Under the pieces are notes generated by a model. The model was not told the DNA's origin, made no database searches, and saw only the letters and a list, made by a program, of their open reading frames with translations. The translations under genes were made by a program, and so were the position numbers. This document shows, in pieces, positions 2,228 through 34,033 of a stretch of 64,000 nucleotides of DNA. This DNA comes from Cellvibrionaceae bacterium (lineage in GTDB: Bacteria > Pseudomonadota > Gammaproteobacteria > Pseudomonadales > Cellvibrionaceae): NCBI GenBank assembly GCA_028281575.1, contig JANQJP010000030.1:67401-131400 (forward strand). The letters are read 5' to 3'. Positions within the stretch are counted from its first letter, which is position 1. The number at the start of each line of letters is the position of its first letter.

Positions 2228-5200
2228 GTGACTTTAATGAATTGTCTCCGCGCACGCTGCTGCCTGTCGTTTAAGCAAGTTATATTTTTCTCGCTAATTA
2301 TTTTCCTCGTATCATGTAAAGATCGTGCTCCGGAAGATGAGGTGGTTTACTTTGTTATGCCCGATCGTTTTGAAAACGGCCGGGAGAGAAATGATACCGG
2401 TGGGATTGACGGTGACCGCACAGTGCACGGTTTTGACGCGTCGGATGAGTCCTATTATCACGGTGGAGATATCAGGGGTTTGCATAAAAAGCTGCCCTAT
2501 CTACGCAAGCTCGGTGTGACCTCTCTATGGTTAACGCCGATATTTAAAAATAGTCCAGTTGCGATCGATGGTAACAGCGCGGCTTATCACGGTTACTGGA
2601 TTCAGGATTACACTCAAGTCGATCCTCATTTGGGCACAAATAGGGAGCTCAAGCGTTTTATTCGTTCGGCGCACCGGTACGGAATCAATGTTTATTTCGA
2701 TATCGTTGTGAATCACACGGCCGATATTATTCGTTACGAAGAGTGTCACAACCCGGACGGCTCTTTTCCTGACAGTGTTAGCGCATGTCCTTACCGCGAT
2801 ACATCTCAAACACCCTACAGTCCATTTGTGCCTTCGGGGCTGGAGGACATTAAACAGCCGGAATGGCTCAATGATTTTGCCAACTACCACAACCGGGGTG
2901 ACTCGAGTTTTTCGGGAGAGTCAGATGAACTCGGTGATTTTTTTGGCTTAGATGATATCAATACAGAAGATCCCGTTGTCGTTCAAGGTATGATCGATAT
3001 TTTTAAATACTGGATTAAAGAATTTGATATCGACGGTTTCAGACTCGACACCGCTAAACATGTAAATATTGAATTTTGGCAGGAGTGGACGCCTGCGATT
3101 AAGCATTTCGCCGCTGCTCAGGGCAAGGAAGATTTTTTAATTTTCGGGGAAATTTTTGATGGTAATCCAAAAAATGTCAGTCGTTATACGACAGAGGGCA
3201 CGCTGCCATCGGCGCTGGATTTTGGTTTGTATTTCGCGATGCGAGATGTATTTGCAACCAATGCCGCGCCGACGCGTATCGCGGATATGTTTGCCCAGGA
3301 TGATTATTATATTGATGCCGATAGCAACGCTTACAATTTGCTTTCGTTTGTCAGTAATCACGACATTGGCCGCCTGGGTCACCAAATTGTTAGCGCCAAT
3401 CCAAACGAATCAGATGAGCAGCATCTAGCGCGTCTACAGCAGGCTTATGCCCTGATGTATTTTGGCCGGGGTATTCCTGTTATTTATTATGGTGATGAAC
3501 AGGGTTTTGTCGGTGGCGATGGCGATAAAGCCAACCGCGAAGACATGATGCCAAGTTTGGTCGAAAGCCAGAATCAAAATAAATTAATGGGTACCGATGC
3601 TACTACTGCCGATGCAAATTTTGATAGACATCACCCGATGTACCAAACTCTGCGCAGCTACAAGAAAGTGTTGGATCTTCACCCAACGTTGCGACGCGGC
3701 AAACAATATGCGCGCTTCGCTAGCGACGCCCCCGGAATTTTGGCAATTTCGCGCGTGGACCCAGAATATCCAAATGATTATTTGGTTGTTTTGAATACCT
3801 CAACGCAGGAACAAAGCGCCCGTATTCCCGCGGCGGCCGACAGTTATATGAGCGTGCACCCCCATCGGTCTTTCGACAGGCTCGAAGCTGTTGGGGGAGA
3901 ACTTGAACTCACCCTGCCTCCGTTATCCACCGTTGTTTATAAGTCGCGCCAACTAGTCGACGGCGCGACGTTGGCGAATGTTGGATTTGGTTTGGCTCAG
4001 GGTTCAAAACGCAAAGGGCGTTTTGAAGTTCCGGCATTAATCACCCTAGTGGATGAAGACCATCCCTTGCCGCTTATTGACGTCGACTTTGAAGTCTCTG
4101 TCGATGATAGTGCCTATACATTTATCGGGACCGATTATAGTGATGATTTTCGTGTCTATTTCGATACTTTGGATTTGCAGGACGGAACAGCGTTACGCTT
4201 TCGCGCAACGGCGAAAGACCGCCACGGCAATGCAATAAGTGCTGAATCTGAAATTGTTGAAGTGGGTGTTCAGCCAGGTATGAACATTATTTTTAAGAAA
4301 CCCGCCACTTGGTCAGACAGCATTAATATTTATTATTGGGATGCGGAGCCCGCTCCCGGGGTTGATTGGCCGGGCGTTTCAATGACGGATATTGGCAATG
4401 GCTTTTTTCAATATCAGTTTCCAGATGATGTGGGTAGCGCCAATATTGTTTTTAATGATGGTGCCAATCAGACATCCGATCTTTATCGTGAGAGCGACGG
4501 TTGCTATATTGACAGCGCGTGGCAAGACAGTTGCGATAGTTCGGGCAGCGCCGGTGGTTTCGTTGTTTATTTCCAGCAGCCTGAGGATTGGTCTGAGTCG
4601 ATAAATATTTATTATTGGCAGGCCGCTCCGCTTCCGGACGCAACGTGGCCTGGCGTTCCGATGCAAGTGTTGGGCGACGGCTGGTTTCGCTACGCGTTTC
4701 CCGAGAGTGTTTCCTCAAGCAACGTAATTTTTAACGACGGTAGCAACCAAACGGCGGACTTGAGCCGCGATAGGGACGGTTGCTATATCGATGGAGCGTG
4801 GGTGGATGTCTGCGATGCGCCAATGTTAGGGCTCTTAGTCACCTTTGTGAAACCTCCTGAATGGGGGGATGCCATTAACGTCTATTACTGGAATGCCGCA
4901 GGGTCGGTTGCGGATGCGGCCTGGCCTGGATTTGCGATGGAAGAGGTCGCTAACGGCTGGTATCAATTCCGTTTGCCGCCCGGTGCAACCAGTGCAAATA
5001 TTATTTTTAACGATGGTCAAGGTAATCAAACAGTGGATTTATTTCGGGAAGGCGATGGCTGCTTTGGCGTCGAAGGTCAGACCTGGAGCGATAGCTGTGA
5101 TATTCCGGTCGACGTTCAGGTCTCAGGTTTTGGCGCGCACTGGTTGGATAGCAGTACAATCGCCTGGCAGCCACGTGCCAGCGATGCGGCGAGCTATCGA

Positions 5201-8200
5201 CTTTATGTCTCCGATGCCGCTGCGCTCGATGTCGATGGCAACCAAATCTTGGGCGCCAGTGGCGATTTTGAACTCAGCCCTGGTGCCAGTCTGAGCCAGG
5301 CTGTAGCCGAGAAATTCCGACACCTTGCAAACTTCCCCGCATTTTCCATTTCGCTCAGTGAGGCAGAGCTCACAGCCGCACTGAAATCTCAGCTCTACGT
5401 GGCAGCTTTTAATGGCAATGGGGTTTTGCGTGAGGTGACGCGGGTGCAGACGCCGGGTGTGATAGACGGACTCTACGCGACTGATGTGCCGCTTGGACTG
5501 CAGCTCAACGATGGTTCGCCGCGCTTGAGTCTATGGGCGCCGACCGCGCAGGAGGTTTTGTTAAACCTCTACGATGCCAACAAAAATCTCCTGGATACTG
5601 TGAATCCAAGCTCAATTGACAACGGGGTTTACAATTTTGACGGCAGCACTTCCTGGTTAGATCTGTTCTACAAGTTTGAGATCACCGTCTATCACCCTGA
5701 AACGGATGCGCTGGAGAGCTATGAGGTCACCGACCCCTACGCATTGAGCCTGAGCACAAACAGCGAATACAGCCAGATCGTCGATCTCGAAAATGATGCC
5801 GCATTGAAGCCCCCCGGTTGGGATGCCCTGGTCAAGTCACTACCGGAAAAGCGCAATATTTCGGTCTACGAAGGTCACGTGAGCGACTTCAGTGACAGCG
5901 ATGAGCTCGTCGCGCTCGAACATCGTGGCAAATATAAAGCCTTCACTTACAACGGTGAAAATGGCCGACCACTGTCACACGGAATGCAGCACCTTAAAGA
6001 CCTTGCAGCGGCCGGGCTGACACATTTTCACCTGCTGCCGGTTAACGATATCGCCACAGTCAATGAAGACCCGACGCGGCATGTGCGCCTCGATGAGCCT
6101 TATACTCGAGCGTGTGAACTTAGTTCTGATGCAGCCGTGCAGGACGGTTGCAGTGAATTTGCGGGTATGACGATTCGCGAAGCGTTTGAACAGTTGAGTG
6201 CAGCTGACCCTGTGAACGAACGGGTTCAAGCCATCGCCAATGCCCTGGCTAACGTCGACCCGGTTAACTGGGGTTACGACCCTTTCCACTTCCTGGCCAT
6301 CGAAGGCAGCTACGCGACAAACAGCGATGGTAAGCCGCGCATATTAGAGTTTCGGGAGATGGTCGCTGCGCTGGATGAGCTTGGCTTAAAGGTGGTCGTC
6401 GATGTGGTGTTCAATCACACCAATGATTCAGGCATTTCCGGCCGCTCTGTGCTCGATAAGGTTGTTCCGGGCTACTATCACCGTCGCAACCCGTTTAGCG
6501 GTTTTGTCGAAAACTCGACCTGTTGTGAGAACACCGCCGCCGAGCATGTGATGATGGAACGCCTGATGATCGACACGGTGGTGCTCTGGGCCGAGCAGTA
6601 CAAAATTGACGCATTCCGCTTTGATCTGATGGGGCACCACCCACGTTCGACAATGTTAAATATCCAGGCTGCGCTGGCCGATCTCAATATCAATGATCAC
6701 GGCGTGGAAGGTGAGAAAATCTACCTATACGGTGAGGGTTGGGATTTTGGTGAAGTAAGTGGTAACCAACGTTTCGATCAAGCCACGCAGTTTAATATGG
6801 GTGGCACCGAAATAGGTACCTTTAATGACCGTTTACGCAGTGCTGTGCGCGGTGGGAATTTCACCGATACCGGCCGTTCGCAGGGCTTCGGTAATGGCAA
6901 TGGCACCTACTGGAACGGGGTCGCCAATGGCGCAGGGTCTGCACAGGACCAGGCCGATCGCATTCGCATCGGTTTAGCGGGTAATTTGCGCGACTATGCG
7001 TTTATTGATAACGCCGGCAATGTTAACTCTGGCGCAGGTTACGTGGGTGTCGGCTATGGCCTGAGCCCACTCGACAACGTGGTTTATGTCGACAAGCACG
7101 ACAACGAAACACTTTGGGATAATACGCAAGCGAAACTACCCGATGGTCTTGGTACAGCAGAACGTGTGCGCATCCACGTGCAGAACCAGTCCTTTGTAAA
7201 CTTTGCGCAGGGTATTCCGTTCCACCAAATGGGCACAGATATTCTGCGTTCCAAGTCAATGGATCGAAACTCCTTCGATTCAGGGCCCTGGGCCAACCGC
7301 GTTGATTTTAGTCTTGCCACATCAAATTGGGCCTCAGGTTTGCCACGTGCATCGGAAAACAGTTCGCGTTGGGACACGATGCGTCAGATTATGAGCAACC
7401 CGAATATCGATCCTCGAACGCCGGAAATCGCACTGGCCAGTGCGCTATTTCAAGAACAGCTGGCAGTTCGCTACTCAAGCGAGTTGTTCCGCCTCGGCAG
7501 CGCTGAGGCGGTCAAACAACGCGTTGCGTTTTGGAATACCGGACCGGCGCAGACCTTGGGTGTGATTGCGATGAGTATTAGCGATGGCAGTTGTGCGGGC
7601 GCCGACTTAGACCCTGAGCTGAATGGGGCAATGCTCATTTTCAACGCCGATGACGATGCGCACACCATAAGTATCCCCGAGTTTGCCGGCGTTGAATTTG
7701 CGTTGCACCCTGTGCAGCAAGCGAGCGCAGATGCAATCGCGAGTAGCTCCAGCTACGCCGCCGCAAATGCTAGCTTCAGTGTTCCGGCACACACCACTGC
7801 GGTATTTGTCAGCCCTCAGTTGGGCGCCCAGGGCGATTTTCCATGCAACCCGCACAATGGCACTTTTGTTGAACCGGGTTTTACAGTGTATTTCCAAAAG
7901 CCGTCGGATTGGAACGAGTTGCGCGTGTACTACTGGAATACCCATCCTGCGACGTCAGACCTCGTGTGGCCCGGTCTTGAAATGCAGCCTTTGGGTGGTG
8001 AGTGGTATAGCTTTACTCTGCCGGATGGTGTGGCCAGTGCGAACCTGATTTTTAATAACAATAATAACGGGCAGCAGACAGCAGATCTTTTCCGGGAAGG
8101 TGATGGGTGTTTCGATATTTCCAGCGGGACATGGTCGGACAACTGTGCGGTTCCAGGTATTGCGCTCAGCTTTGAAAAGCCCGCGGGCTGGGGCGACGAT

Positions 8201-14446: not shown

Positions 14447-15358
14447 TTAATTGAAATAGCTGACTATTTCTTCAAAGTTTTCTTTCGCTTCATCAAAACC
14501 AATATTGTCTTCGTCATCCGCATAGGACATTGCCTCAACAAAATGCGCATATTCTCTTTGGTATTCGTCATCTTCGCCTAATGAAGTAATCGCTGATTTC
14601 ATCGAATCAACGAAGCTTCCTTTGGTATCACGTTTTCCTGTTTGCTGATCTTCTTCAAAGGAAGAAAATGCAGTTTCCAGAAAAAGCCCCTTATTTTCAT
14701 CCACAACTATTTTCAATGCGCACAGGTCATGGAGATGCCGGATCATTGCTGAATCATCGTTTTCATCACTACGATCACGCTTTAATATTCTCCAGGTCAA
14801 TGCACTTAACTTATCGGACGCAGTTTCAACAGGAGAAAGATAGAGTATTTTAGTTTCAGAAGAGCCATCAGTGAACTGTGATACAAATGATTGAATTTCT
14901 CGGATCTCCGGCTCAAGACGAGGCTGTGTAAAACTAAACTCGACCTGTAATCCCGCTCGAAGCGAAGCATGTTCAAACTGCTTTTTCTCGTAGGATAAAG
15001 GAAATTTTATGTAGTTACTGGCTTTGGCAATATCTGATTCATCAAGTGAAACAAAGTCACAACTATTTATCTTTTCAATTAGCTGGGTTCGGTATTCAGA
15101 TCTCATTTTTCGAAGTTGATTACCCGAAGTTTCAATTTCATATCGACAACGAAAATCTAAGTCTTCTGAAAACCTTTGGAGAATGCCAAACCCTTTTGAG
15201 AGACTCGTACCACCAGAGAAAATAGTGGTAATATCGGGAGAAGAAAAATCGGCAATCAACGACAGCGCTTGAACTGAATACCAATCTTTTTCGACAAAAG
15301 CTGGATCGACACCGAGCTCCGTCGCGATCTCTAGAACGACGTCTGGATCAAGAGACAT
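14447..15358 (-). CDS. AbiEii/AbiGii-family nucleotidyltransferase toxin (type IV TA).
   Basis: Motifs EKDWY...FSGGTSLSKGFG...RFSEDLDF are typical of the DUF1814/AbiEii nucleotidyltransferase. Confidence 0.8.
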   Translation of the reverse strand: MSLDPDVVLEIATELGVDPAFVEKDWYSVQALSLIADFSSPDITTIFSGGTSLSKGFGILQRFSEDLDFRCRYEIETSGNQLRKMRSEYRTQLIEKINSCDFVSLDESDIAKASNYIKFPLSYEKKQFEHASLRAGLQVEFSFTQPRLEPEIREIQSFVSQFTDGSSETKILYLSPVETASDKLSALTWRILKRDRSDENDDSAMIRHLHDLCALKIVVDENKGLFLETAFSSFEEDQQTGKRDTKGSFVDSMKSAITSLGEDDEYQREYAHFVEAMSYADDEDNIGFDEAKENFEEIVSYFN

Positions 15359-16780: not shown

Positions 16781-17368
16781 TTGCGCGCCATGAATGCGCT
16801 TGTCCTCTACATCGCTTCTTTTGTGCACGCCTACCTCCGTATTATCAAGCCCGGCGGCGTTAAAGCCCTGGCTGCAGAAAATGCCGCGTTAAGGCATCAA
16901 CTGGCCATTATCATACGTGGCAGAAAGCGAGCCCCGAACCTTGAGCTAAGGGATCGCATTCTCTTAGGTCTCATGATCGATCTCATCAAAGATAAGCGAT
17001 TAAACAAGGTTGCCGTATTATTAAAACCTAAAACGCTGCTACGGTGGCAAGCCAGCTTACGTTTGCTTGAGATTGCAGAAATAAAATCGATTCCAGGTAC
17101 GCCAATATCACATCCCTTTATTGAACGATTGATTGGTACTGTACGACGAGAATATTTAGATAATGTGCTTTTTGGGAATGCAACTGACTTGCAGAAAAAG
17201 CTGGACCGTTTCAAACGTTACTACAACACTCATCGAACACACTATTCCCTTAAACATCACACGCCTCAATGTATGATGGAAAATAAAGCGGTGAAACCGT
17301 TAGATATTCACAATTATTCCTGGAAACCTGCTTGTCGAGGTTTGTTTCAAATTTCCATCGCAGCTTAA
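16781..17368 (+). pseudogene. Decayed transposase (integrase-core, DDE-type) remnant of a second IS family.
   Basis: N-terminal ENAALRHQLA coiled-coil typical of IS3/IS481 transposases is joined directly to a C-terminal rve-like segment (PISHPFIERLIGTVRREYLD). The catalytic core is missing. Confidence 0.55.
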
Positions 17369-23932: not shown

Positions 23933-24991
23933 ATGAGCAGCGTCAAATTGAATAAATTACCACCAACTCAAGAACTGGAAACACCAGCTATTCTGAGAGC
24001 ACTGGTTGACGCACATAGGCACTTGGCTGAACTCAAAGGTGTCGCCAAAACTATCCCGAACGAAGGCATTTTAATATCGACGCTTTCACTTCAGGAAGCT
24101 CAAAGCAGCTCTGAAATTGAAAATATTATCACCACTCAAGATGCGCTTTATAAACAAGAGCTGCAGACGAGCGTATCTGATCCCGTGGCGAAAGAAGTTG
24201 CCTATTACGCTGCCGCATTACGATCAGGCTTCGACAAAGTGAAGCAACAAGACGCGCTTACTTTAAATACCATCATGGAAGTTCAGCAAACGCTTGAAGG
24301 AAACAGAGCAGGCTTCAGAAAAATACCCGGCACTGTGCTTAAAAATGACCGAACAGGCGAAGTTGTATTTGAACCTCCTTCACCCGAGTTAGTGCCTCAA
24401 TATATGTCAGACCTCGAGTCGTTTATTAACGCGGAGCAAAACCTCGACCCGTTAGTTTGCATGGCACTTATACATCATCAGTTTGAAACTATTCATCCTT
24501 TTTACGATGGCAATGGTCGCTCTGGCCGTATCGTTAATATCCTTTACTTACTGCTGAAAGGTCTCTTAGACACACCGATCCTATATTTGAGCCGGTACAT
24601 CAACCAAACCAAAGATGAGTACTACACAGAACTTCAAAACGTTCGTGACACAAATGAGTGGGAAGCTTGGCTTCTCTATATGCTTAGAGGTGTGAGCTCA
24701 ACAGCGATACACACCATCGATCTAGTTCAAAAGATCCAGAAGCTGTTACTCGAAATAAAGCAAGAAATCCGTGACAAACACAAATTTTACAGCCAAGACC
24801 TCATAAATAATTTATTTCGCCACCCATACACTAAAGTCGCTTTTCTAGAAAAAGACCTTGGCGTATCTCGTGCAACAGCCACTCGATACTTAGATGCTCT
24901 CTCAGATGATGGAACTCTCCAAAAGCATAAGCTCGGTAGAGAAAGCTTCTATATGAATCAAAGGCTCATCGGTGTGCTGTTTAATATGTAA
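23933..24991 (+). CDS. Fic/DOC family protein (class II, with internal inhibitory motif).
   Basis: Canonical HPFYDGNGRSGR (HPFx[D/E]GNGR). N-terminal SSEIEN matches the SxxxE[G/N] inhibitory helix. C-terminal winged-helix region. Confidence 0.85.
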   Translation: MSSVKLNKLPPTQELETPAILRALVDAHRHLAELKGVAKTIPNEGILISTLSLQEAQSSSEIENIITTQDALYKQELQTSVSDPVAKEVAYYAAALRSGFDKVKQQDALTLNTIMEVQQTLEGNRAGFRKIPGTVLKNDRTGEVVFEPPSPELVPQYMSDLESFINAEQNLDPLVCMALIHHQFETIHPFYDGNGRSGRIVNILYLLLKGLLDTPILYLSRYINQTKDEYYTELQNVRDTNEWEAWLLYMLRGVSSTAIHTIDLVQKIQKLLLEIKQEIRDKHKFYSQDLINNLFRHPYTKVAFLEKDLGVSRATATRYLDALSDDGTLQKHKLGRESFYMNQRLIGVLFNM

Positions 24992-25287
24992 GCACAAGAC
25001 TCCCAACAGGTATTTGAGATGCACGGATCTTTGAGCCTAACGGTACCTAATATAAGCCTCTCATAAGAAATCGCTTGACTTTAATACCTCGACTCATACA
25101 ATCCGCGCAAACTTAATTTGAGGTTGTAATGACTTTACTACGTTCGAAGCACGGCAGTTTTTATATCTGGACGCCCGGGATGATATGTAATCCACAGGAG
25201 GATCTCGCACGTCCACACGTTGCCTGCTAGACGAAGATTCTGGTAGGCAATACGCCTTCCAGCTTTAGTTTAAGTATTCAAACAATA

Positions 25288-25329
25288 AACCCGGAAGGCG
25301 AAATACGCTTTTCGGGTTTTTTTTCGCCT
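25288..25329 (+). terminator. Rho-independent terminator-like hairpin.
   Basis: aaacccg...cgggttt stem followed by a T8 run. Confidence 0.5.
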
Positions 25330-25354
25330 GAAGGAAATGAAAATTTAAAAATAT

Positions 25355-25429
25355 GGGCCGTTAGTTCAACGGTTAGAACCCTGGCCTCATAAGCCAGTTA
25401 CGAGAGTTCGACTCTCTCACGGCCCACCA
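25355..25429 (+). tRNA. tRNA-Met or Ile2 (anticodon CAT).
   Basis: Acceptor gggccgt/acggccc, anticodon arm ctggc-ctcataa-gccag, T-loop gttcgac, encoded CCA. Confidence 0.75.
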
Positions 25430-25789
25430 AATTTAGGAAATCAACAGGAAAAAGAGATTTATTTTAATTGAGGCTTAGAACATTTTTTTATAGATGAATA
25501 GTGTGATTTAACCGGTAGGGAAATTTTGAATTTTAATCAATTTTTCTCCGATGTCCCCTTCCCGAAATTTTGCCATATGCTGCAATAGGGAATTGCTCAC
25601 CCTAAAGAAAAATAACGCTATATAATATTCGGGAATACACCCAAAAAATCACCAAAAATTAAATTTGAAAAGAAAAAAAACAGCGCGTATCGTTTAAAAC
25701 AGATTCGCAACACGAACAAAAAACAGTAAGTAAAAAATTATGAAATTTAACTATCAGCAACATAGCAAGCATTTTTATTTATTGGGCTG

Positions 25790-25950
25790 GCCCACACCAT
25801 CCATAGATACAAATGTACTCCGTAGTGGGCTAGAACGTCCCTGCGTAACTTTTGGTGATAGCAAACTAATGTAAGCAGCTTTCGATAACGGAAGGCTGTG
25901 CCTTCCGGTGAATTAGAGAAACCCCGGTTGGCAACAATCGGGGTTTTTTT
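25790..25950 (+). ncRNA. Candidate small RNA with intrinsic terminator.
   Basis: Several stable hairpins (gcccac/gtgggc, ggaagg/ccttcc) end in ccccg-N-cgggg plus T7. No ORF. Confidence 0.3.
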
Positions 25951-26289
25951 ATGCCCACGGATGGGCGGTATAACGCAAGAGCCATGGATGGCGTTAGCGT
26001 ACGTTTTAGGAAGAACGAATTCGCGAAAGCTGGATGCTAAGTAGCGGAATTTTATGGAGTAGTACTCGCACGGATTGCGATTTTTGTTTCTAGCAATCGG
26101 AATTGCTAAACGCGCAATGGATGTGCGGAAACAATTTTATTTAGGTGTGATACCCACCGACACGGTATCGGTTTTTTAACAATGTGGTCGCTTTTTTTGG
26201 CAGGTAGCTGCTTTCCCCTTTTAATAAGGGCAAAGCCCTCGGCGTCTAACTGATTAGACATAGGTGCCTTTCCTATTCTGCCAACCAAT

Positions 26290-26364
26290 GTCCCTATGGT
26301 CTAGTGGTGAGGACTCCTGACTTTCTATCAGGCAGCGCCGGTTCGAGTCCGGCTAGGGATACCA
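26290..26364 (+). tRNA. tRNA-Glu (TTC).
   Basis: Anticodon arm cctga-ctttcta-tcagg, T-arm gccggttcgagtccggc, CCA. Confidence 0.7.
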
Positions 26365-26371
26365 AATTTTT

Positions 26372-26596
26372 GGGCATGCAGGCGAGAATGGAGAACCACT
26401 ACCAAAAACGATTAGGTTAAGGGTAGCCGGGTAAAACCGGAGGTTACTGAAATAAGCTATTACGCATGGTTGAGGATGCAGGCTCGATGCTCTACGGCGG
26501 GTGTCAGCTGGCGCGCGTTTTCCAAGTAATTAGCTTGGCTGAGAGTAATGCCTCAGTTGTTTCCTTTCGCGGGTTCGAATCCCGCCATGTCCACCA
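26372..26596 (+). ncRNA. Interrupted tRNA-like gene: canonical T-arm/acceptor/CCA with the cognate 5' acceptor strand 215 nt upstream.
   Basis: 3' end is gcgggttcgaatcccgc-catgtcc-a-cca. The only complementary 5' strand is gggcatg at 26372 (one G-U pair). About 150 nt of extra structured sequence lies between them. Confidence 0.4.
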
Positions 26597-26602
26597 ATTG
26601 TT

Positions 26603-26677
26603 ACGTCGATAGCTTAATGGAAAAGCGTTGGTCTCCAAAACCAGAAGATGTGGGTTCAAATCCTACTCGGTGTGCCA
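26603..26677 (+). tRNA. tRNA-Trp (CCA).
   Basis: Anticodon loop ctccaaa, T-arm gtgggttcaaatcctac, acceptor with two G-U pairs, CCA. Confidence 0.65.
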
Positions 26678-26728
26678 AATAAAAGCGGGATAGTGAAGCA
26701 GAAAGGAGGGGCTCCCGCAACCAAATTT

Positions 26729-26804
26729 GTAGAGATAGCTCAAATGGCGAGAGCGCCTGATTGAAGCCCAGGAGATCCCGGTTCAATTCCGGTTCTCTAC
26801 ACCA
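26729..26804 (+). tRNA. tRNA-Phe (GAA).
   Basis: Acceptor gtagaga/tctctac, anticodon loop ttgaagc (A31·C39 mismatch), CCA. Confidence 0.6.
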
Positions 26805-26810
26805 ATTTAC

Positions 26811-26886
26811 TGCTACATAGCTTAACTGGTAAAGCGCCCGGCTGTTAACCGGGAGGATGCAGGTTCGAAGCCAGCTGTAGCAGCCA
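26811..26886 (+). tRNA. tRNA-Asn (GTT).
   Basis: Anticodon arm cccgg-ctgttaa-ccggg, CCA. Confidence 0.7.
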
Positions 26887-26891
26887 AATTA

Positions 26892-26975
26892 GGGGAAGTA
26901 CCCAAGTGGCAAAGGGATCGCACTGTAAATGCGAAATATGTTGAGACGTAGGTTCGAGTCCTACCTTCCCCACCA
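26892..26975 (+). tRNA. tRNA-Tyr (GTA), class II.
   Basis: 84 nt. Anticodon arm tcgca-ctgtaaa-tgcga, long variable arm, T-arm gtaggttcgagtcctac, CCA. Confidence 0.75.
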
Positions 26976-26982
26976 AAAACCA

Positions 26983-27073
26983 GGAAGTGTGGCCGAGCGG
27001 TGAAGGCACCGGTTTGCTAAACCGGCAAGTGACGAAAGTTGCTTCAAGAGTTCGAATCTCTTCGCTTCCGCCA
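26983..27073 (+). tRNA. tRNA-Ser (GCT), class II.
   Basis: 91 nt. ggaagtgtggccgagcgg... is Ser-like. Anticodon arm ccggt-ttgctaa-accgg, CCA. Confidence 0.8.
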
Positions 27074-27085
27074 ATTTGATTACTT

Positions 27086-27175
27086 GGAAGGTGCGGTCCA
27101 TTGGCGGACAACCGGTCTTGAAAACCGGCGAGTTGTAGAGATACGGCTGGGGTTCAACTCCTCCACCTTCTTCCA
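27086..27175 (+). tRNA. tRNA-Ser (TGA), class II, with non-canonical D- and T-stems.
   Basis: Anticodon arm ccggt-cttgaaa-accgg is identical to E. coli Ser-TGA. Discriminator U, CCA. Confidence 0.55.
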
Positions 27176-27188
27176 ACTTTTTAATAAT

Positions 27189-27265
27189 GTGCCGGTGGTG
27201 GAACTGGAATACACAACAGGTTTAAGCCCTGTTCGCTGAGGGTTCGAGTCCCTCTCGGCACACCA
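27189..27265 (+). tRNA. tRNA-Leu-like (TAA) with short variable arm.
   Basis: Anticodon arm acagg-tttaagc-cctgt. 77 nt with a 5-nt variable loop, A73, CCA. Confidence 0.5.
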
Positions 27266-27270
27266 ATAAT

Positions 27271-27347
27271 GGCCAGCTGATGGAATTGGCATACATGCGT
27301 GCCTTAGAAGCACGATTTTCCGAGTTCGAATCTCGGGCTGGCTACCA
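27271..27347 (+). tRNA. tRNA-Leu-like (TAG) with short variable arm.
   Basis: Leu-type D-arm (tggaattggcatacatgcg), anticodon arm cgtgc-cttagaa-gcacg, 77 nt, A73, CCA. Confidence 0.5.
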
Positions 27348-27353
27348 ATTTAA

Positions 27354-27430
27354 GCAGGTGTGGCGCAATAGGCAGACGCGCTGGATTCAAATCCCAGATG
27401 TTGTGAGTTCGACTCTCACCACCTGCACCA
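27354..27430 (+). tRNA. tRNA-Leu-like (CAA) with short variable arm.
   Basis: D-arm gtggcgcaataggcagacgcg is nearly identical to the bacterial Leu D-arm. Anticodon loop ttcaaat, variable loop only 5 nt, A73, CCA. Confidence 0.55.
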
Positions 27431-27435
27431 AAACT

Positions 27436-27634
27436 CGTGGAGTAGTTTAATCGTTTGCAGTTTTTTGCTCCTGCAAAAACTGCATTTCCACCATCCTTGG
27501 TGGTCAATGCGATTTTCATAAAATTGGTGTTGGTGGTTCACAAATTTTTCAGGAAAAAATTTGGGCGTCTGTATAGACGGTTGCGAAGCAACTGACTACA
27601 TGGATGTAGTCATCAACCCCACCCTCCACGACCA
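27436..27634 (+). tRNA. tRNA(CAT)-like gene carrying a D-region insertion and a T-arm insertion (199 nt).
   Basis: Acceptor cgtggag/ctccacg + A + CCA. Anticodon arm cgatt-ttcataa-aattg. T-stem ggtgg/ccacc and T-loop ttcacaa are followed by a ~75-nt insert. A ~70-nt insert lies between the acceptor and the anticodon arm. Confidence 0.45.
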
Positions 27635-27643
27635 ATTAAAAAT

Positions 27644-27718
27644 AGCAGTGTGGTGTAACTGGCAACACACGTGACTTTGACTCACGTATTTCAGGTTCGA
27701 ATCCTGGCGCTGCTGCCA
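27644..27718 (+). tRNA. tRNA-Gln (TTG).
   Basis: Anticodon arm cgtga-ctttgac-tcacg, G73, CCA. Confidence 0.7.
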
Positions 27719-27730
27719 AATAAAAACTAT

Positions 27731-27881
27731 GCACGAGTGGCAGAGAGGGTATGCGCGGGATTGCAAACCCCGTATTACGCCGGTTAGACAAAATTGTAGG
27801 AACAATTTTGGGATGCGCTTTGCACAGGTTGCGAAGCAACTTAACACACGGATGTGTTAACCAATCCGGCCTCGTGCTCCA
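27731..27881 (+). tRNA. tRNA-Cys (GCA) with an ~80-nt insertion after the T-loop (151 nt).
   Basis: Acceptor gcacgag/ctcgtgc + U73 (Cys identity) + CCA. Anticodon loop ttgcaaa. T-stem gccgg/ccggc is split by the structured insert. Confidence 0.55.
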
Positions 27882-27886
27882 ATTTC

Positions 27887-27962
27887 GGGGGCCCATGTAC
27901 CAAGGGGGCGACGATGCTTTGCAAGCATTGTGTGGTCGGTTCGATTCCGACGGTCTCCACCA
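27887..27962 (+). tRNA. tRNA-Ala (TGC).
   Basis: G3·U70 identity pair is present. Anticodon loop tttgcaa, T-arm gtcggttcgattccgac, A73, CCA. The D-arm is non-canonical. Confidence 0.6.
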
Positions 27963-28419
27963 GAACTAAACCTTTTAGGTTTATTGGGTATGGCCAAGAT
28001 AGCACGGTGTAAATCGTGTAAAGGGGGGACGCCTGCGTAACTCCGCCAGAGCAATCTGGTCAATCCATGCAAGCCGAGCCTGCAGAGGCTTCATCACAAG
28101 ATGGAGATATCAGCAATGATGTAGAGCGTCTGAATGAGTTTAAGCACCTTTGAGTAAAAAACTTGGAGGAAATGCAAGCTCATAAATCAGCAAGTGGTGT
28201 TGGATCACGCTCAAACCAATACATTTACCTGAGACAGGCAAAGGGTAGCGCAAAGGTGCGATCCGCAAGAGAGTGCATTTGTGCAGTTGATAAGTGTCGG
28301 AAGAAAAACCGTCGCTTTGAAAACCGTTAAGTAAGCGGTAGCTGAAAGACATGTGGCGAGTGGCATTTTGTCGATCAAAAGTCGATAAAACCACAGGACG
28401 TGCTCGCTGCAGCAGGTTG

Positions 28420-28492
28420 TTGAAATTAGCTCAACTGGTAGAGCAATTGACTCGTAATCAATAGGCTGCTGGTTCAATCCCAGCATTTCAAA
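28420..28492 (+). tRNA. tRNA-Thr (CGT).
   Basis: Acceptor ttgaaat/atttcaa (all A/T), D-arm tagctcaactggtagagc, anticodon arm attga-ctcgtaa-tcaat. No encoded CCA. Confidence 0.65.
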
Positions 28493-28846
28493 CCCAAACA
28501 GAAAAATGCAAAGACACGTCCGGTGTTTTGTGAAAATGGCTTAATGCCTTGCTACGCAAGTAGAACAAGGCTGATTAACCGGCCGCAAGCTGGAAGATCA
28601 TCTGTCACAACGTGCACGTTGGTCGCAAACCTTTAGAGCTCGCAAGGCTCGCGGTAACGAAAGGGCAGAAAAACAAAACACGACAAGTGAATCGCCACAC
28701 TTTTAAAAAAAGGCAGCCATGTCGAATTACATCCTTGTCCCCTGCGGGAAATGATGTGGATACGAAATTAACTTGTGGTCGCAAGCCACAAGGTAAGGTT
28801 TCAAAAGGTTCGACGCAAACGCTGTAGTCTCAAGCGTTTAATTTTC

Positions 28847-28925
28847 GGTTCGTTAGCTTAGCCTGATTTAAAGCACTCGGTAGTCAGCCGAGGGATCACG
28901 GGTTTAAATCCCGTACGAACCGCCA
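28847..28925 (+). tRNA. tRNA-Asp (GTC).
   Basis: Acceptor ggttcgt/acgaacc, anticodon arm ctcgg-tagtcag-ccgag (A33 is unusual), G73, CCA. Confidence 0.6.
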
Positions 28926-28926
28926 A

Positions 28927-29000
28927 GCGGCATTGACCGAATGGCGAGGTACCTGCCTTCCAAGCAGAGGAACAGGGTTCGATTCCCTGATGCCGCTCCA
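28927..29000 (+). tRNA. tRNA-Gly (TCC).
   Basis: Acceptor gcggcat/atgccgc, anticodon loop cttccaa, U73, CCA. Confidence 0.7.
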
Positions 29001-29031
29001 ATTTATTTTTCATCTATTAAAAATTTTCTTT

Positions 29032-29109
29032 CCGGGTTTAGCTCAGTTTGCGAAGAGCGCTTGCTTTGGGAGCAAGAGGCCCTAGGTTCGAATCCTAGTA
29101 CCCGGACCA
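29032..29109 (+). tRNA. tRNA-Pro (TGG).
   Basis: D-arm tagctcagtt..., anticodon arm cttgc-tttggga-gcaag, A73, CCA. Confidence 0.7.
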
Positions 29110-29116
29110 AATTAAT

Positions 29117-29330
29117 GGACGTGTAGCTCAATGCCCTCGGGTGCAACTGGGTGGCAAATTTTTGCTCCTGCAAAGTTTTCATTTCCGCCATCCATGGCGG
29201 TCAGCACCTGTTTTACACACAGGATACGGTGGTTCACAACTTTGCAGGAGTAAGAGTTGGACGCCCAAACGGGCGGTCGCGAAGCGATTATTTACAGGGA
29301 TGTAAATAACAATTCCATTCACGTCTACCA
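29117..29330 (+). tRNA. tRNA-Val(TAC)-like gene with D-region and T-arm insertions (214 nt).
   Basis: Acceptor ggacgtg/cacgtct + A + CCA. Anticodon arm cctgt-tttacac-acagg. T-loop ttcacaa is followed by a ~75-nt insert. A D-region insert shares ttttgctcctgcaaa and a covarying hairpin with the gene at 27436. Confidence 0.45.
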
Positions 29331-29349
29331 CTTCAAATTTTAAAAAAAT

Positions 29350-29502
29350 GCTCACGTCGCTTAACGGCAAAGCACTTCCCTTGTAAGGAAGATGATGACG
29401 GTTCAAATAATTTGACAGGATCAAATTAAGGCGTCCTTTAGGGCGGTTACGAAGTAACTGTTTTACATGGATGTAAAACATCAATCCAGTCCGTGAGCTC
29501 CA
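29350..29502 (+). tRNA. tRNA-Thr(TGT)-like with an ~80-nt insertion after the T-loop (153 nt).
   Basis: Acceptor gctcacg/cgtgagc + U + CCA. D-stem gctt/aagc. Anticodon arm cttcc-cttgtaa-ggaag. T-loop ttcaaat, then the insert. Confidence 0.5.
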
Positions 29503-29506
29503 ATTT

Positions 29507-29582
29507 GCTCGATTAGTTTAATTGAAGAAAACGCTGGCGTGCGAAGCCGGTAATGCAGGTTTGAATCCTGCATCGAGCGCCA
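29507..29582 (+). tRNA. tRNA-Arg (GCG; unusual anticodon).
   Basis: Acceptor gctcgat/atcgagc, anticodon arm ctggc-gtgcgaa-gccgg, G73, CCA. Confidence 0.55.
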
Positions 29583-29594
29583 ATTTATTTTTTT

Positions 29595-29669
29595 CCGCTC
29601 GTGGCGTAATGGTAGCGCATCGGCCTTTTAAGCCGACAGGTGTAGGTTCAAGTCCTACCGGGCGGACCA
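29595..29669 (+). tRNA. tRNA-Lys (TTT).
   Basis: Anticodon arm tcggc-cttttaa-gccga, A73, CCA. Confidence 0.75.
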
Positions 29670-29676
29670 ATTCTTT

Positions 29677-29752
29677 GCTCCCGTAGCTCAATGAATAGAG
29701 CACTTGTCTTCGAAACAAGTTGATGCTGGTTTGAATCCAGCCGGGAGTGCCA
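29677..29752 (+). tRNA. tRNA-Arg (TCG).
   Basis: D-arm tagctcaatgaatagagc, anticodon arm cttgt-cttcgaa-acaag, G73, CCA. Confidence 0.65.
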
Positions 29753-29776
29753 ATTAACGATAAGAGAATACTTAGG

Positions 29777-29849
29777 GGTGGCTATAGCATAGTGCCAATG
29801 CCCCTGGTTGTGATCCAGGTTGACATGGGTTCGAATCCCATTAGTCACC
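29777..29849 (+). tRNA. tRNA-His (GTG) with G-1:C73, embedded in a 13-bp inverted-repeat extension.
   Basis: Extra 5' G pairs with C73 (His identity). Anticodon arm cctgg-ttgtgat-ccagg. Flanks gagaatacttagg / cctaagtattctc are perfect inverted repeats. No CCA. Confidence 0.7.
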
Positions 29850-29886
29850 CCTAAGTATTCTCAATTACTCAATCAAGGAGAGCATC

Positions 29887-30180
29887 ATGCGCATAGCACT
29901 AAGTAAACGCGAGTGTTATCACGCAGATATTTATTGCAGTGATAGCAACTCCGCGAAAAAAATACTAAGAGAAAATCCGATTTCCATATTAGCCGTGGAT
30001 TTTTATTTGTATGGCCGTGAAAACGGTACTCATGTCTTAGCATGGGCTAGGACAAAAAAACTACTTCCACATTATGTAGTGGTAACAGAAAGCGACCGCA
30101 ATAAACGTGTTCTATTAGCTGAAGAGCTCACGAAAGGAGGTTACAACTCTGCTGATGGAACAACATTTATAAAACATTAA
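29887..30180 (+). CDS. Hypothetical small protein inside the tRNA array.
   Basis: Strong SD (aaggaga) 8 nt upstream of ATG. 97 aa. Fold unknown; weak resemblance to receiver-like domains. Confidence 0.45.
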   Translation: MRIALSKRECYHADIYCSDSNSAKKILRENPISILAVDFYLYGRENGTHVLAWARTKKLLPHYVVVTESDRNKRVLLAEELTKGGYNSADGTTFIKH

Positions 30181-30181
30181 T

Positions 30182-30258
30182 GTCCTCGTGGCTCAACTGG
30201 AGAGCGCAACGGATTTCTACTCCGTAGGTTGTGGGTTCGAATCCTACCGGGGACGCCA
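30182..30258 (+). tRNA. tRNA-Arg (TCT).
   Basis: D-arm tggctcaactggagagc, anticodon arm acgga-tttctac-tccgt, G73, CCA. Confidence 0.65.
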
Positions 30259-30284
30259 GTATAGCAACCAGTAGGAGCAACGAG

Positions 30285-30842
30285 ATGGGCAGAGTATTGC
30301 GCTTAGATATTTCCGGAACGCCAACTTCTTGGCTTTCGCGGAAAGAAGCGGCCGTTTTATATGTTAAAAATTTAGTGCAGTGGGAACTTGGAGATAAAAG
30401 TTTAGTTATCTTCGGAGGAACAAACCGATTAACCGGAAAACAATCTTCGTTGGAAATCAGCCCAGTTATTGCAACTCGAGGTGATACTCATCGAAGAAAA
30501 TTGGTTTCCGGATTTAATAATCGAATGCTATTCCGTCGAGACAATTATCACTGCATGTACTGTGGTGGAAAATTTAGTCACGTAGAATTGACACGAGATC
30601 ACGTAGTACCGCGTGCACAAGGAGGATTAGATATTTGGGAAAATGTTGTGGCAGCCTGTGGAAGGTGCAATCACTTTAAAGCGGACCGCACACCTGAACA
30701 AGCGGGTATGAAGTTATTAGCCATACCTTTTAGACCAAATATATTTGAATCCATGTACTTAGCACAACACAAAGTACTAGCAGATCAAATGGAATACTTG
30801 GAAAAACAATTTTCAGGTAAAAGAACTTGGAAAGCGGCGTAA
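30285..30842 (+). CDS. HNH endonuclease.
   Basis: DHVVPRAQGG...WENVVAACGRCNHFK HNH/ββα-Me motif with a Cys zinc knuckle (CMYCGG). SD aggag upstream of the ATG at 30285. The longer ORF annotated from 30231 would overlap the tRNA. Confidence 0.8.
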   Translation: MGRVLRLDISGTPTSWLSRKEAAVLYVKNLVQWELGDKSLVIFGGTNRLTGKQSSLEISPVIATRGDTHRRKLVSGFNNRMLFRRDNYHCMYCGGKFSHVELTRDHVVPRAQGGLDIWENVVAACGRCNHFKADRTPEQAGMKLLAIPFRPNIFESMYLAQHKVLADQMEYLEKQFSGKRTWKAA

Positions 30843-30975
30843 ATTACTTACGTCGTATTCCATACAGAAGTTTATATCTTCGCCGAGAGTTAGCGGAACT
30901 GGTTCTGTACGCCAGTCTGGCACAAGCGTTGTTAACGTGCTGTGTACCAATTCGAAAGCGGGAATAAATTGGATG

Positions 30976-31052
30976 GTTTTTGTAGCTCATTCGGGTAGAG
31001 CAATAGACTCATAATCTATCGGTAGCGGGTTCGATTCCCGTCAAAAACACCA
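30976..31052 (+). tRNA. tRNA-Met or Ile2 (CAT), second copy.
   Basis: Acceptor gtttttg/caaaaac, D-arm tagctcattcgggtagagc, anticodon arm ataga-ctcataa-tctat, A73, CCA. Confidence 0.65.
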
Positions 31053-31421
31053 CGTCGTCTCCAAAACGACTCTATGGGAAGGCCGAGAGGCTTGAGGTTC
31101 GAGTCCTCACAAGACTTTCACTCTTGTTTAAAATCTACGAGAGGTCCATGATCTTGAATTGGGTAGGTCAGTAGCGAAAGCCATTGGCTGATCACAATTC
31201 AGGGTGCCGACAATATAGCCGGGTTAGATGGGTCGAATTGGCACGATGACATTCTATGAATGTGATGCGTTTATACACCACCTCAATATAAAAGGATGAT
31301 TGTTGGGTGAGTGATAAATAAATCCACTCCTCTAGAATGAACTCCTGCCGATTCCAAATGTGATCCCCCTGTATTCGAGGGTGGGCCTCGCCATTAATTT
31401 TTTAAGGCAAAAGGAAATACG

Positions 31422-32579
31422 ATGTTCTTTTTAAAAACAGTTGATATTGCCGATAACGAACGAGCGTTGCTCTTTGATCGAGATCGGCTACAAAAAGTAC
31501 TTGGCCCAGGGCGACACCGCTTGTCTACTTTTGGGCGAAAGTTAACAGTAGAAAAGTTTGACATTACTTCAGTGCGCTTTGAGCACCCAAAGCTCAAGTT
31601 TTTGGTGCGTCAGTACCAAGCGCTTCTTGAAGACTATGTAGATGTGTTTGAGCTAAATGATAGTGAGGTCGGTGTTATCTACCGCGATCAAAAAATCTCG
31701 GATATTCTACCTCCAAGTAATTTATTGGTTACTTGGAAAGGTGCTGAGGACGTTCGAGTAGATATCGTCGATATCACTAAAAACTATGAAATCAAAGATG
31801 AACTAGTTGCACTTTTAGGTCGAGGCGTAAAAATCGGTACAAGCCGACAAGTTGTGAATGCCATTAGCTATGCAGAGGTACCAGATGAACATGTGGGGCT
31901 TCTACAAGTTAACGGTAAGTTAGAGCGTGTACTTGAGACCGGCGCTTACGCCTTCTGGAAATACAACCGGTCAATTGTAGTAAAGCTGCTTGATTTACGT
32001 GTACAGACCATTGATGTAAGCGGCCAAGAAATCTTGACTAAAGATCGTGTGAGCTTGCGTATTAACTTGTCAGCGAGCTACAACATTGTCGATCCAGAAA
32101 GCGTTGCACTAAAACTGAAAGATTACGCGAACTTTCTGTACTTAGAGCTTCAATTGCGATTGCGAGAAGCCGTGGGCACAAAACTATTAGATGAATTACT
32201 TGAAGATAAGGATGCCCTCAACTCAGTGATCGCGAATGGCGTTAGTGAGAAACTAGCCGAGTTTGGTATAAAGTTGCGAAGTGTGGGTGTAAAAGACATT
32301 ATTCTACCCGGTGATATGAAAGTGATCCTAAATCAAGTTGTCGAAGCTCAAAAAGAAGCCGAAGCTAACGTGATTAAACGACGAGAAGAAACTCAAGCAA
32401 TGCGATCACTACATAACACCGCAAAAGTAATGGAAAACAACCCAGTGCTATTGCGATTGAAGGAGCTTGAAGCGCTAGAACGAATCACTGCAAAAATCGA
32501 TAAGATTTCTGTATATGGTGGTTTAGATAGTGTACTCAATGACATGGTCAAACTAGCTCCTTCCAAACCGGCTCAATAA
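31422..32579 (+). CDS. SPFH/band-7 (stomatin/prohibitin/flotillin/HflK-C-like) domain protein.
   Basis: Central SPFH-like region followed by a long coiled-coil Ala/Glu-rich segment. SD aaggaaa upstream. Confidence 0.75.
   Translation: MFFLKTVDIADNERALLFDRDRLQKVLGPGRHRLSTFGRKLTVEKFDITSVRFEHPKLKFLVRQYQALLEDYVDVFELNDSEVGVIYRDQKISDILPPSNLLVTWKGAEDVRVDIVDITKNYEIKDELVALLGRGVKIGTSRQVVNAISYAEVPDEHVGLLQVNGKLERVLETGAYAFWKYNRSIVVKLLDLRVQTIDVSGQEILTKDRVSLRINLSASYNIVDPESVALKLKDYANFLYLELQLRLREAVGTKLLDELLEDKDALNSVIANGVSEKLAEFGIKLRSVGVKDIILPGDMKVILNQVVEAQKEAEANVIKRREETQAMRSLHNTAKVMENNPVLLRLKELEALERITAKIDKISVYGGLDSVLNDMVKLAPSKPAQ

Positions 32580-32785: not shown

Positions 32786-34033
<1,248 letters not shown>

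Follow-up and report, generated by a model that had tools for sequence, protein, structure and literature searches.

An accessory tRNA array in the chromosome of a Cellvibrionaceae bacterium raises the question of what kind of sequence lies within the D- and T-loops of some of its tRNA genes. The array was analysed in a stretch of 64 kb (contig JANQJP010000030.1), hereafter the window, in which ARAGORN predicted 23 tRNAs between positions 25355 and 31052, every one of them on the + strand. Four gaps in this array are tRNA-like genes missed by the program, with the anticodons CAT, GCA (Cys), TAC (Val) and TGT (Thr). Two of them, a tRNA-Met/Ile2-like gene with the anticodon CAT (27436-27634, +) and tRNA-Val(TAC) (29117-29330, +), bear inserts in both the D-loop and the T-loop. 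The initial annotation of this locus had proposed that the D-insert of a tRNA pairs with the T-insert of the same tRNA, giving a single, co-evolving composite domain at the tRNA elbow. The analysis showed that the D-insert is one copy of an unannotated two-hairpin module of ~50 nt, designated the UCC module. This module is widespread and structurally constrained, is present or absent at orthologous sites and does not depend on the T-insert.

As they stand, the CAT and Val genes are detected neither by ARAGORN nor by the Rfam model RF00005. After in-silico excision of both inserts, i.e., ~74 nt from the T-loop and, from the D-loop, ~50 nt in CAT or ~61-65 nt in Val, ARAGORN recognizes them as tRNA-Met(CAT) and tRNA-Val(TAC). 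All four insert-bearing genes have uninterrupted orthologues in L323 (related genomes and metagenome loci are denoted by L numbers), a related array whose HNH endonuclease is 85% identical to that of the window; those of the CAT and Val genes lie at L323:6533-6608 and L323:7057-7130, and a further uninterrupted Val gene was found at L459:4492-4565. Alignment to the L323 orthologues placed the D-insert between D-loop nucleotide 16/17 and G18G19 and the T-insert after TTCA, so that the location in the D-region given by the initial annotation was confirmed by both approaches. The exon parts of the CAT and Val genes are nearly identical to the intact orthologues, with the D-stem down to about 3 pairs. 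The other two genes, tRNA-Cys(GCA) (27731-27881, +) and tRNA-Thr(TGT) (29350-29502, +), carry a T-loop module only (about 27789-27860 and about 29406-29480, respectively), and excision of 73-76 nt or 76-79 nt restores a tRNA-Cys and a tRNA-Thr. Insert-bearing genes thus escape tRNA finders, and since Val(TAC), Cys(GCA) and Thr(TGT) are present in the window array solely in this form, all three were missed; therefore, tRNA arrays can look incomplete when they are not.

The UCC module, a widespread two-hairpin element

The consensus of the UCC module reads GCNG-N-TGCTCCTGCA-N-CNGC-AY-TTCC-RCCATCCNTGGYGG-TC. The module is composed of hairpin A, which has a variable covarying stem and the conserved loop GCUCCUGC, a linker A(C/U)UUCC, and hairpin B, CCRCCAUCCNUGGYGG, which an additional covarying Y-R pair closes, and it displays three UCC motifs. 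In the CAT gene it lies at 27453-27507 (+), where an inverted repeat was also detected, with hairpin A at 27457-27483 (loop UCCU), the linker AUUUCC at 27484-27489, hairpin B at 27488-27503 (loop UCCU) and a final UCA. The copy of the Val gene (29150-29204, +) has hairpin A at 29154-29180, the same linker AUUUCC, hairpin B at 29185-29200 (loop UCCA) and UCA. Both D-inserts contain all elements of the definition, namely the hairpin A loop GCUCCUGC, the linker AYUUCC, hairpin B and the closing Y-R pair. The 64-kb window contains two copies, and no more, of a 15-mer, TTTTGCTCCTGCAAA (27463 and 29160), and the second hairpins of the two inserts are one compensatory pair apart (A-T vs G-C). A covariance model of the UCC module, R1, gave two matches only in the window, and these are the two D-inserts (CAT, 67.5 bits, E-value 2.6e-12; Val, 66.8 bits, E-value 3.7e-12). 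The shared motif and the covarying hairpin noticed in the initial annotation are therefore borne out, with E-values of ~1e-12.

Metagenome contigs were scanned with a pattern for hairpin B, TTCCRCCATCCNTGGYGGTC, which matched at least 120 loci, and nearly all of the listed matches also carry, at a fixed spacing, hairpin A, which is absent from the pattern. The search for further members proposed earlier thus yielded many homologous modules. An alignment was built from 110 distinct copies (the two window inserts and 108 others), and pairs were counted on the proposed structure. In hairpin A, 11 out of 11 pairs vary on both sides. The pair of columns 35/56, formed by the bases that precede TTCC and follow GGTC, neither of which is part of the search pattern, is CG in 56 copies, UA in 45, UG in 8 and CA in 1. 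The covariation score of 0.328, compared with 0.165 in shuffles, was reached in none of 500 shuffles and lies above that of every slid register. The UCC of the loop GCUCCUGC is nearly invariant, the linker UUCC and AUCCNU are likewise conserved, and the stems track the GC content of the host as the loops stay conserved.

In the array region, the inserts had no Rfam match with E<=10, and at gathering scores no family matched the UCC module in the whole window or in 20 module-bearing metagenome loci. In the literature, searched by sequence string and by topic, neither the UCC module nor the four-hairpin GGA module of the T-inserts (see below) was found to be described. Pattern scans of IMG/VR for the D-insert (GCTCCTGCAAAN{3,14}CATTTCC) and for the T-insert returned chance or coding matches only, and distant BLAST of the region against phages returned only ordinary tRNAs. 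BLAST of the UCC module itself gave no match in 50,697 phage records or in 5,426 E. coli genomes, and among 72,556 plasmids a single one matched, a 1.8-Mb Halomonas replicon. The copy number is low, with two copies in the window and two places in the Halomonas replicon. As a separate observation, the IMG/VR viral contig L326 carries a UCC module (1288-1342, +) directly upstream of a C4 antisense RNA (RF01695, 1418-1499).

Excision at 153 module sites restored a tRNA solely at the Val gene of L453, and none of the metagenome copies tested in this way lies within a tRNA; the window CAT and Val genes, for which a double excision is needed, are the only other intact tRNA hosts seen. Location within a tRNA is therefore special to these arrays. 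All UCC-module matches in the arrays are on the tRNA strand, and wherever the host transcript could be deduced, i.e., in tRNA arrays, in small RNAs (sRNAs) rich in GGA hairpins and in the spacer between miaB and phoH, the module is sense-oriented.

GGA hairpins and a probable link to Csr-type RNAs

Read as its reverse complement, CCGCCAUGGAUGGCGG-AAAUG-...UGCAGGAGCA..., the UCC module becomes two GGA-presenting hairpins, and GGA is the hallmark by which CsrA/RsmA sites are recognized. Judged from these motifs, it is probably an antisense counterpart of CsrA/RsmA-type GGA hairpins. Such hairpins make up the T-inserts, each of which is a module of four hairpins: HP1 with the loop (C/U)AGGA, a GC-rich HP2, HP3 with GYGAAGC, and HP4 with ACA-N-GGAUGU. 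The HP4 motif, ACA(N)GGAUGU, fits the consensus RUACARGGAUGU obtained for CsrA by SELEX (PMC4347634). In the CAT gene the GGA module spans 27541-27612 (+), with HP1 at 27541-27563 (loop CAGGA), HP2 at 27564-27580, HP3 at 27581-27591 (GCGAAGC) and HP4 at 27593-27612 (ACAUGGAUGU). In the Val gene it spans 29237-29309 (+), with HP1 at 29237-29259, HP2 at 29260-29278, HP3 at 29277-29287 and HP4 at 29288-29309, and is 81% identical to the T-insert of a tRNA-Phe gene in L206, a syntenic Cellvibrionaceae genome. When 13 T-modules were aligned with MAFFT and folded with RNAalifold, only HP3 and HP4, which covary, were recovered, and HP1 and HP2 were poorly aligned. Apart from the T-loop of L206 tRNA-Phe, the T-module was found in tandem arrays in Rheinheimera and Chromatiaceae genomes. 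In Pseudoalteromonas (L207, 90-190; L248, 4380-4490, -), a short tRNA-like 3' element of the form AGGGTTCGA[four-hairpin GGA module]TAATCCCTCCTTCTCCACCA stands right behind a terminator; T-loops occupied by the GGA module are therefore not confined to tRNA arrays.

Directly upstream of the main block of the array lies a GGA-hairpin-rich candidate sRNA of CsrB/RsmZ-like appearance (25935-26177, +), with an intrinsic terminator at 26156-26172 (+). It has 7 GGA-in-loop hairpins per 250 nt compared with a window mean of 0.38, and one of its hairpins, GCCATGGATGGCG, is the exact complement of the Val hairpin B over 13 nt. Syntenic candidates are present in L206, L453, L321 and L462, with hairpin units gained or lost between strains.

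Among the copies examined, the UCC module is frequently located inside the loop of a same-strand GGA hairpin, in the arrangement stem-CAKGG^[module]^AUG-stem and within GGA-rich RNAs; eight loci provide examples of GGA hairpin loops split in this manner. In a marine sRNA family the module stands among same-strand GGA hairpins (two loci) and follows a GGACGG linker (three loci). In Halomonas it lies between the co-directional genes miaB and phoH, sense to both and inside a conserved closed structure. In Halomonas sp. PA16-9 (L458, NZ_CP040452.1; 1440-1570), this element consists of a long closing stem around a module-split GGA hairpin, followed by a second GGA hairpin. Eight divergent metagenome copies retain the miaB-phoH element with compensatory changes, and Rfam does not contain it.

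Among known systems, the sponge RNAs CsrB, CsrC, RsmX, RsmY and RsmZ are among the closest: the T-insert and the upstream sRNA are built of GGA-in-loop hairpins, HP4 fits the SELEX consensus, and it is in RNAs of this kind that the UCC module is most often embedded. The multiple GGA motifs in loops that characterize CsrB/Rsm RNAs are found in the T-inserts (two GGA hairpins each) and in the upstream sRNA (seven). The D-insert lacks them, having UCC in both loops and in the linker; since UCC is the complement of GGA, the D-insert cannot be a CsrA site. Unlike the known sponges, none of these elements is scored by a Csr/Rsm family of Rfam: over 25000-31500 the CsrB, CsrC and Rsm covariance models yielded no match with E<=10, and none of the related loci reached their gathering scores. 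We know of no Csr sRNA with an antisense module or a tRNA scaffold.

Polymorphism, pairing and competing explanations

Comparison of related arrays demonstrated that the inserts vary at orthologous sites. The Val gene carries the D-insert alone in L453, both inserts in the window and neither in L323 and L459; the CAT gene has both in the window and L321, the D-insert alone in L461, and neither in L323, L453, L459 and L462. In Arg(TCT), the UCC module is present in L321, L322 and L461, with no GGA module in the T-arm. The T-loops of L453 Val and L461 CAT are intact. L453, the closest array (HNH 98% identical), has intact CAT, Cys and Thr genes, and L323 and L459 possess none of these inserts. 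Since L453 Val, L461 CAT and Arg(TCT) of L321, L322 and L461 carry a D-insert without a T-insert, the former is independent of the latter. Other insertions were found as well. The tRNA-Ser(TGA) gene of L453 (4990-5262) has three: position 26 holds a UCC-type module, a GGA module follows TCTTGA within the anticodon loop, and the third insert, again a GGA module, precedes the T-stem. This gene cannot decode as it stands; its third insert also occurs in the upstream sRNA of that strain and not in that of the window. In L321 and L461 a GGA module lies in the D-loop of Arg(TCG), and T-arms are truncated. Insertion always follows GG, be it in the D-loop G18G19 region, in GGA loops or in the GGACGG linker, and no clear target duplication was seen.

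A third type of small D-loop insert was also observed. In the window Val gene, an extra hairpin (GCCCTCGGGTGCAACTGGGTGGC, with GCCCTCGGGTGCAAC...; 29133-29155, +) precedes the UCC module, making the D-loop insert of this gene a composite one, and the same hairpin is present in L453 Val. A related hairpin stands alone in the D-loops of tRNA-Phe in L459 (about 3225-3260) and L461 (about 150-185).

With regard to the pairing of the two inserts, the Val D-insert (29157-29177, +) is predicted by RNAfold to pair with the T-insert (29238-29258, +) in a duplex of 21 bp counting G.U pairs, at base-pair probabilities of 0.69-1.0; with a probability of ~1 in the ensemble, this pairing is thermodynamically dominant. 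The match may also be described as a 30-nt inverted repeat at 80% complementarity. Of the 14-nt exact complement stated in the initial annotation, 13 pairs are Watson-Crick pairs and the last one is a terminal G.U. In the CAT gene, RNAfold gave zero expected D:T pairs, and the complementarity amounts to 6 nt of Watson-Crick pairs, or 9 nt at 89%. The longest Watson-Crick run of the Val D-insert is 13 nt with its own T-insert, 13 nt with the upstream sRNA and 19 nt with the T-insert of L206 tRNA-Phe, and the 6 nt between the CAT D-insert and its own T-insert is the lowest value of all partners tested. D:T complementarity is therefore generic, because GGA hairpins make up the T-module and have their antisense form in the D-module.

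These results bear directly on the composite domain, in which the D- and T-insert of one tRNA would pair and co-evolve. In its favour are the Val duplex, the proximity of the D- and T-loops, which are neighbours in the three-dimensional structure of tRNA, and the presence of T-inserts in both D-bearing genes of the window. In addition, hairpin A of the window Val gene differs from that of L453 by caaaAtttG -> caaaGtttT; in this single case, the two changes weaken its own stem and extend the perfect complementarity with the T-insert, which is 10 nt in L453, to 13 nt. The claim failed the refutation test set for it beforehand: the CAT gene lacks D:T pairing, D:T complementarity is not conserved among the homologues found, and D-inserts occur without T-inserts in relatives; the converse, a T-insert alone, is seen in Cys, Thr, L206 Phe and L321 Met. 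Moreover, the Val D-insert fits the T-insert of another genome better than its own, and only one of the 153 excised module sites gives a tRNA. A conserved D:T elbow domain is not supported, and we regard the model as very improbable. The D-insert was also considered as a simple inverted copy of its own T-insert and rejected as such, since its hairpins come in another order and it occurs worldwide at places that have no T-module.

In our best reading, to which we assign a probability of about one half, the UCC module is an anti-GGA RNA element of the copy-and-paste kind that has been grafted into accessory tRNA genes and most likely masks GGA sites; both the masking and the manner of insertion are what we infer from the data above. 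The module would have been copied into D-loops beside G18G19 by DNA-level copy-and-paste or recombination, and four-hairpin GGA modules would have been copied separately into T-loops. Transcribed in the UCC orientation within the pre-tRNA, its loops may base-pair with GGA hairpins of the own T-insert (Val), of other T-inserts or of the neighbouring Csr-type sRNA, and by thus competing with a CsrA-type protein the module may mask the GGA sites, either in cis or in trans. Pairing within one gene would then be a consequence of two complementary families. A bolder version, which we consider rather doubtful, holds that the UCC module is a dedicated anti-GGA lock which, by pairing with GGA hairpins bound by CsrA/RsmA, gates the CsrA load of a sponge RNA, a 5' untranslated region or a tRNA-scaffolded decoy, that the decorated tRNAs of this RNA-repair-linked array are stable, tRNA-bodied Csr regulators coupling tRNA supply or damage to the Csr regulon, and that both families spread into hairpin loops beside GG.

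Several observations weigh against an anti-GGA role. The connection of the UCC and GGA modules to CsrA is drawn from motif similarity only. Several genes with inserts in relatives are clearly degenerate or chimeric: Arg-TCT of L321 has lost T-arm sequence, and the 5' half of Trp in L321 (about 1500-1690) and of Ser in L461 (about 425-560) is joined to CAT, the junction in both being the UCC module. These chimeras suggest recombination between module copies in different tRNA genes, and together with the state of the L453 tRNA-Ser(TGA) gene such signs of decay fit neutral or selfish insertion better than function. The evidence on the active strand is divided, too. The variable pair of hairpin B is A.C in 19-21 copies vs G.U in 3-4, which favours the GGA strand and disagrees with pair 35-56 (U.G 8 vs C.A 1), which favours the UCC strand; terminator-based strand counts were 3 vs 7 of 109. 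Action of the UCC-strand RNA is accordingly not claimed for all copies. Finally, no mechanism or enzyme of insertion was identified.

A strong rival in the tRNA context, which is possible and in our judgement less likely than the reading above, is that the inserts are neutral or selfish. Both module families would be small mobile or recombining repeats, of the type of repetitive extragenic palindromic (REP) sequences, miniature inverted-repeat transposable elements (MITEs) or palindrome-associated transposable elements (PATEs), or spread by microhomology-driven gene conversion, in a redundant array whose decorated genes are becoming pseudogenes, and the inserts would have no RNA-level role there. 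Copies are indeed dispersed over the metagenome loci mentioned above and polymorphic in presence in the Val, CAT, Arg-TCT and Ser genes, orthologous sites differ between arrays with HNH proteins 85-98% identical, and the insertion positions are many (D-loop, position 26, anticodon loop, variable region, T-loop). The inserts cluster, as both D-bearing window genes carry T-inserts (about 0.017, hypergeometric from gene counts) and the L453 tRNA-Ser has three; the breakpoints of chimeric and truncated genes are at the module; and insertion is always after GG. As small dispersed hairpin elements next to a short fixed sequence (GG), present at some sites and absent from others, the modules resemble REP/REPIN, MITE and IS200/IS605-type elements, and the covarying pair flanking hairpin B resembles a guide/cleavage-site pair. 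On the other hand, copies in one array diverge yet retain their hairpins via compensatory changes, the module is stably retained at the orthologous miaB-phoH site of Halomonadaceae-like contigs, it is always in the sense orientation in tRNA genes, and the exon parts of the decorated window genes are intact. The very low copy number, the conservation of loops across hosts of very different GC content, the near absence from plasmids and the absence from the phage and E. coli collections also distinguish the UCC module from REP/REPIN and MITE elements, as does its tie to same-strand GGA hairpins. No transposase was linked to the module, and no search aimed at transposases was made; the sole transposase gene near the inserts is of the IS3 type (32878-33657, -).

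The inserts might also be intron-like, being cut from the pre-tRNA at structured junctions and re-ligated by an RtcB-type ligase to give normal tRNAs. Archaea possess noncanonical (bulge-helix-bulge) tRNA introns, and intron transposition is known in Thermoproteales. Like these introns, the inserts are short, lie in D-, T- and anticodon loops (37/38 in the latter) and at position 26, occur several per gene, vary between relatives and are common to different tRNA genes. The idea also draws on the RtcB, RtcA, Rnl-type RNA ligase or RlaP genes adjoining related arrays, on a weak cREC match, below the family cut-off, of a 97-aa open reading frame (ORF) in the window, and on the occurrence of Val(TAC), Cys(GCA) and Thr(TGT) in decorated form only. 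Unlike the archaeal cases, the genome is bacterial, no EndA or other splicing endonuclease was identified, and the insert families are not confined to tRNA genes, having members in sRNAs and untranslated regions, for which splicing would be senseless. A bulge-helix-bulge intron was rejected because the would-be 4-bp helix is non-complementary in 4/4 T-inserts (ACAA, GACA or AAAT, after the 3-nt bulge behind the 5' strand of the T-stem, does not pair with the 4 nt before the 3' strand of the T-stem) and minimum free energy folds are without the motif at the D-insert junctions. Group I/II introns and ribozymes were rejected as well: cmscan at E<=10 gave no match to an intron or ribozyme family of Rfam on 27440-27620 or 29130-29320, and inserts of 50-75 nt are too short for group I/II introns. 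On balance, excision and re-ligation of the inserts appears improbable.

Regulatory RNAs of tRNA and rRNA operons offer a further comparison. The sRNAs rrA, rrB and rrF bind CsrA (PMC8144298). Together with the 3'ETS-leuZ sponge and engineered tRNA scaffolds, they resemble the present genes in placing a regulatory RNA on a housekeeping transcript or a tRNA body that gives processing and stability; those RNAs, in contrast, are situated in spacers or trailers or take the place of the anticodon arm, and here the modules are within the D- and T-loops of otherwise intact tRNA genes. If confirmed, our best reading would give the Csr/Rsm field a structured RNA module that is widely distributed and unannotated, an antisense partner of CsrA sites inside sponge RNAs, and would imply that Csr sponge RNAs may be built from copy-and-paste hairpin units. 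It would also be, to our knowledge, the first example of structured regulatory modules in the D- and T-loops of bacterial tRNA genes, which would bear on the evolution of accessory tRNA arrays and on their roles beyond tRNA supply.

Genomic setting of the array

The window is part of a bacterial chromosome and encodes a pullulanase/amylase, TonB, enzyme I of the phosphotransferase system (PTS) and a transporter of the major facilitator superfamily; a phage origin was considered and rejected on account of the chromosomal flanks (TonB, pullulanase, PTS). The array belongs to an island that also contains AbiEii, Fic and IS3-type transposase genes, and this island is variable, since the close relative L453 has other flanking genes. 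Flanking the array are an AbiEii toxin gene, IS3-type integrase-core ORFs and a Fic/DOC gene, at 14447-15358 (-), 16781-17368 (+), 23933-24991 (+) and 32878-33657 (-).

The downstream part of the array contains a conserved trio of genes, namely the 97-aa ORF (29887-30180, +) between tRNA-His and tRNA-Arg(TCT), whose weak match is to cREC_REC, an HNH endonuclease gene (30285-30842, +) and a Band-7/SPFH protein gene (31422-32579, +). In relatives, the same HNH gene adjoins RtcB/RtcA/RtcR, an Rnl-type RNA ligase or RlaP, from which we conclude that the array is accessory and linked to RNA repair; the trio and the repair genes of relatives suggest an RNA-repair or conflict island.

Between the two D-bearing genes, an Rfam match to GOLLD RNA (RF02032) was found at 28351-28836 (+), enclosing tRNA-Thr(CGT). 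Like the decorated genes, GOLLD joins an ornate RNA to tRNA genes within an accessory tRNA array. It differs from them in that the inserts are outside the match and have no sequence in common with it, and in that GOLLD encloses a tRNA, whereas here the tRNA encloses the modules. The possibility that the UCC modules (27453-27507 and 29150-29204) are part of GOLLD was rejected, there being no overlap. In L453 (about 5840-6710), GOLLD encloses tRNA-Gln(CTG) at the place of tRNA-Thr(CGT); the tRNA embedded in GOLLD is thus exchangeable.

A further tRNA-like gene of the window (26372-26596, +) combines the acceptor GGGCATG/CATGTCC-A-CCA with a normal T-arm and has an internal stretch of about 150 nt. 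It was not called by ARAGORN and has a weak match to transfer-messenger RNA (25.3 bits, below the family cut-off). By-eye comparison revealed an apparently identical copy of this gene in L453 (4238-4470).

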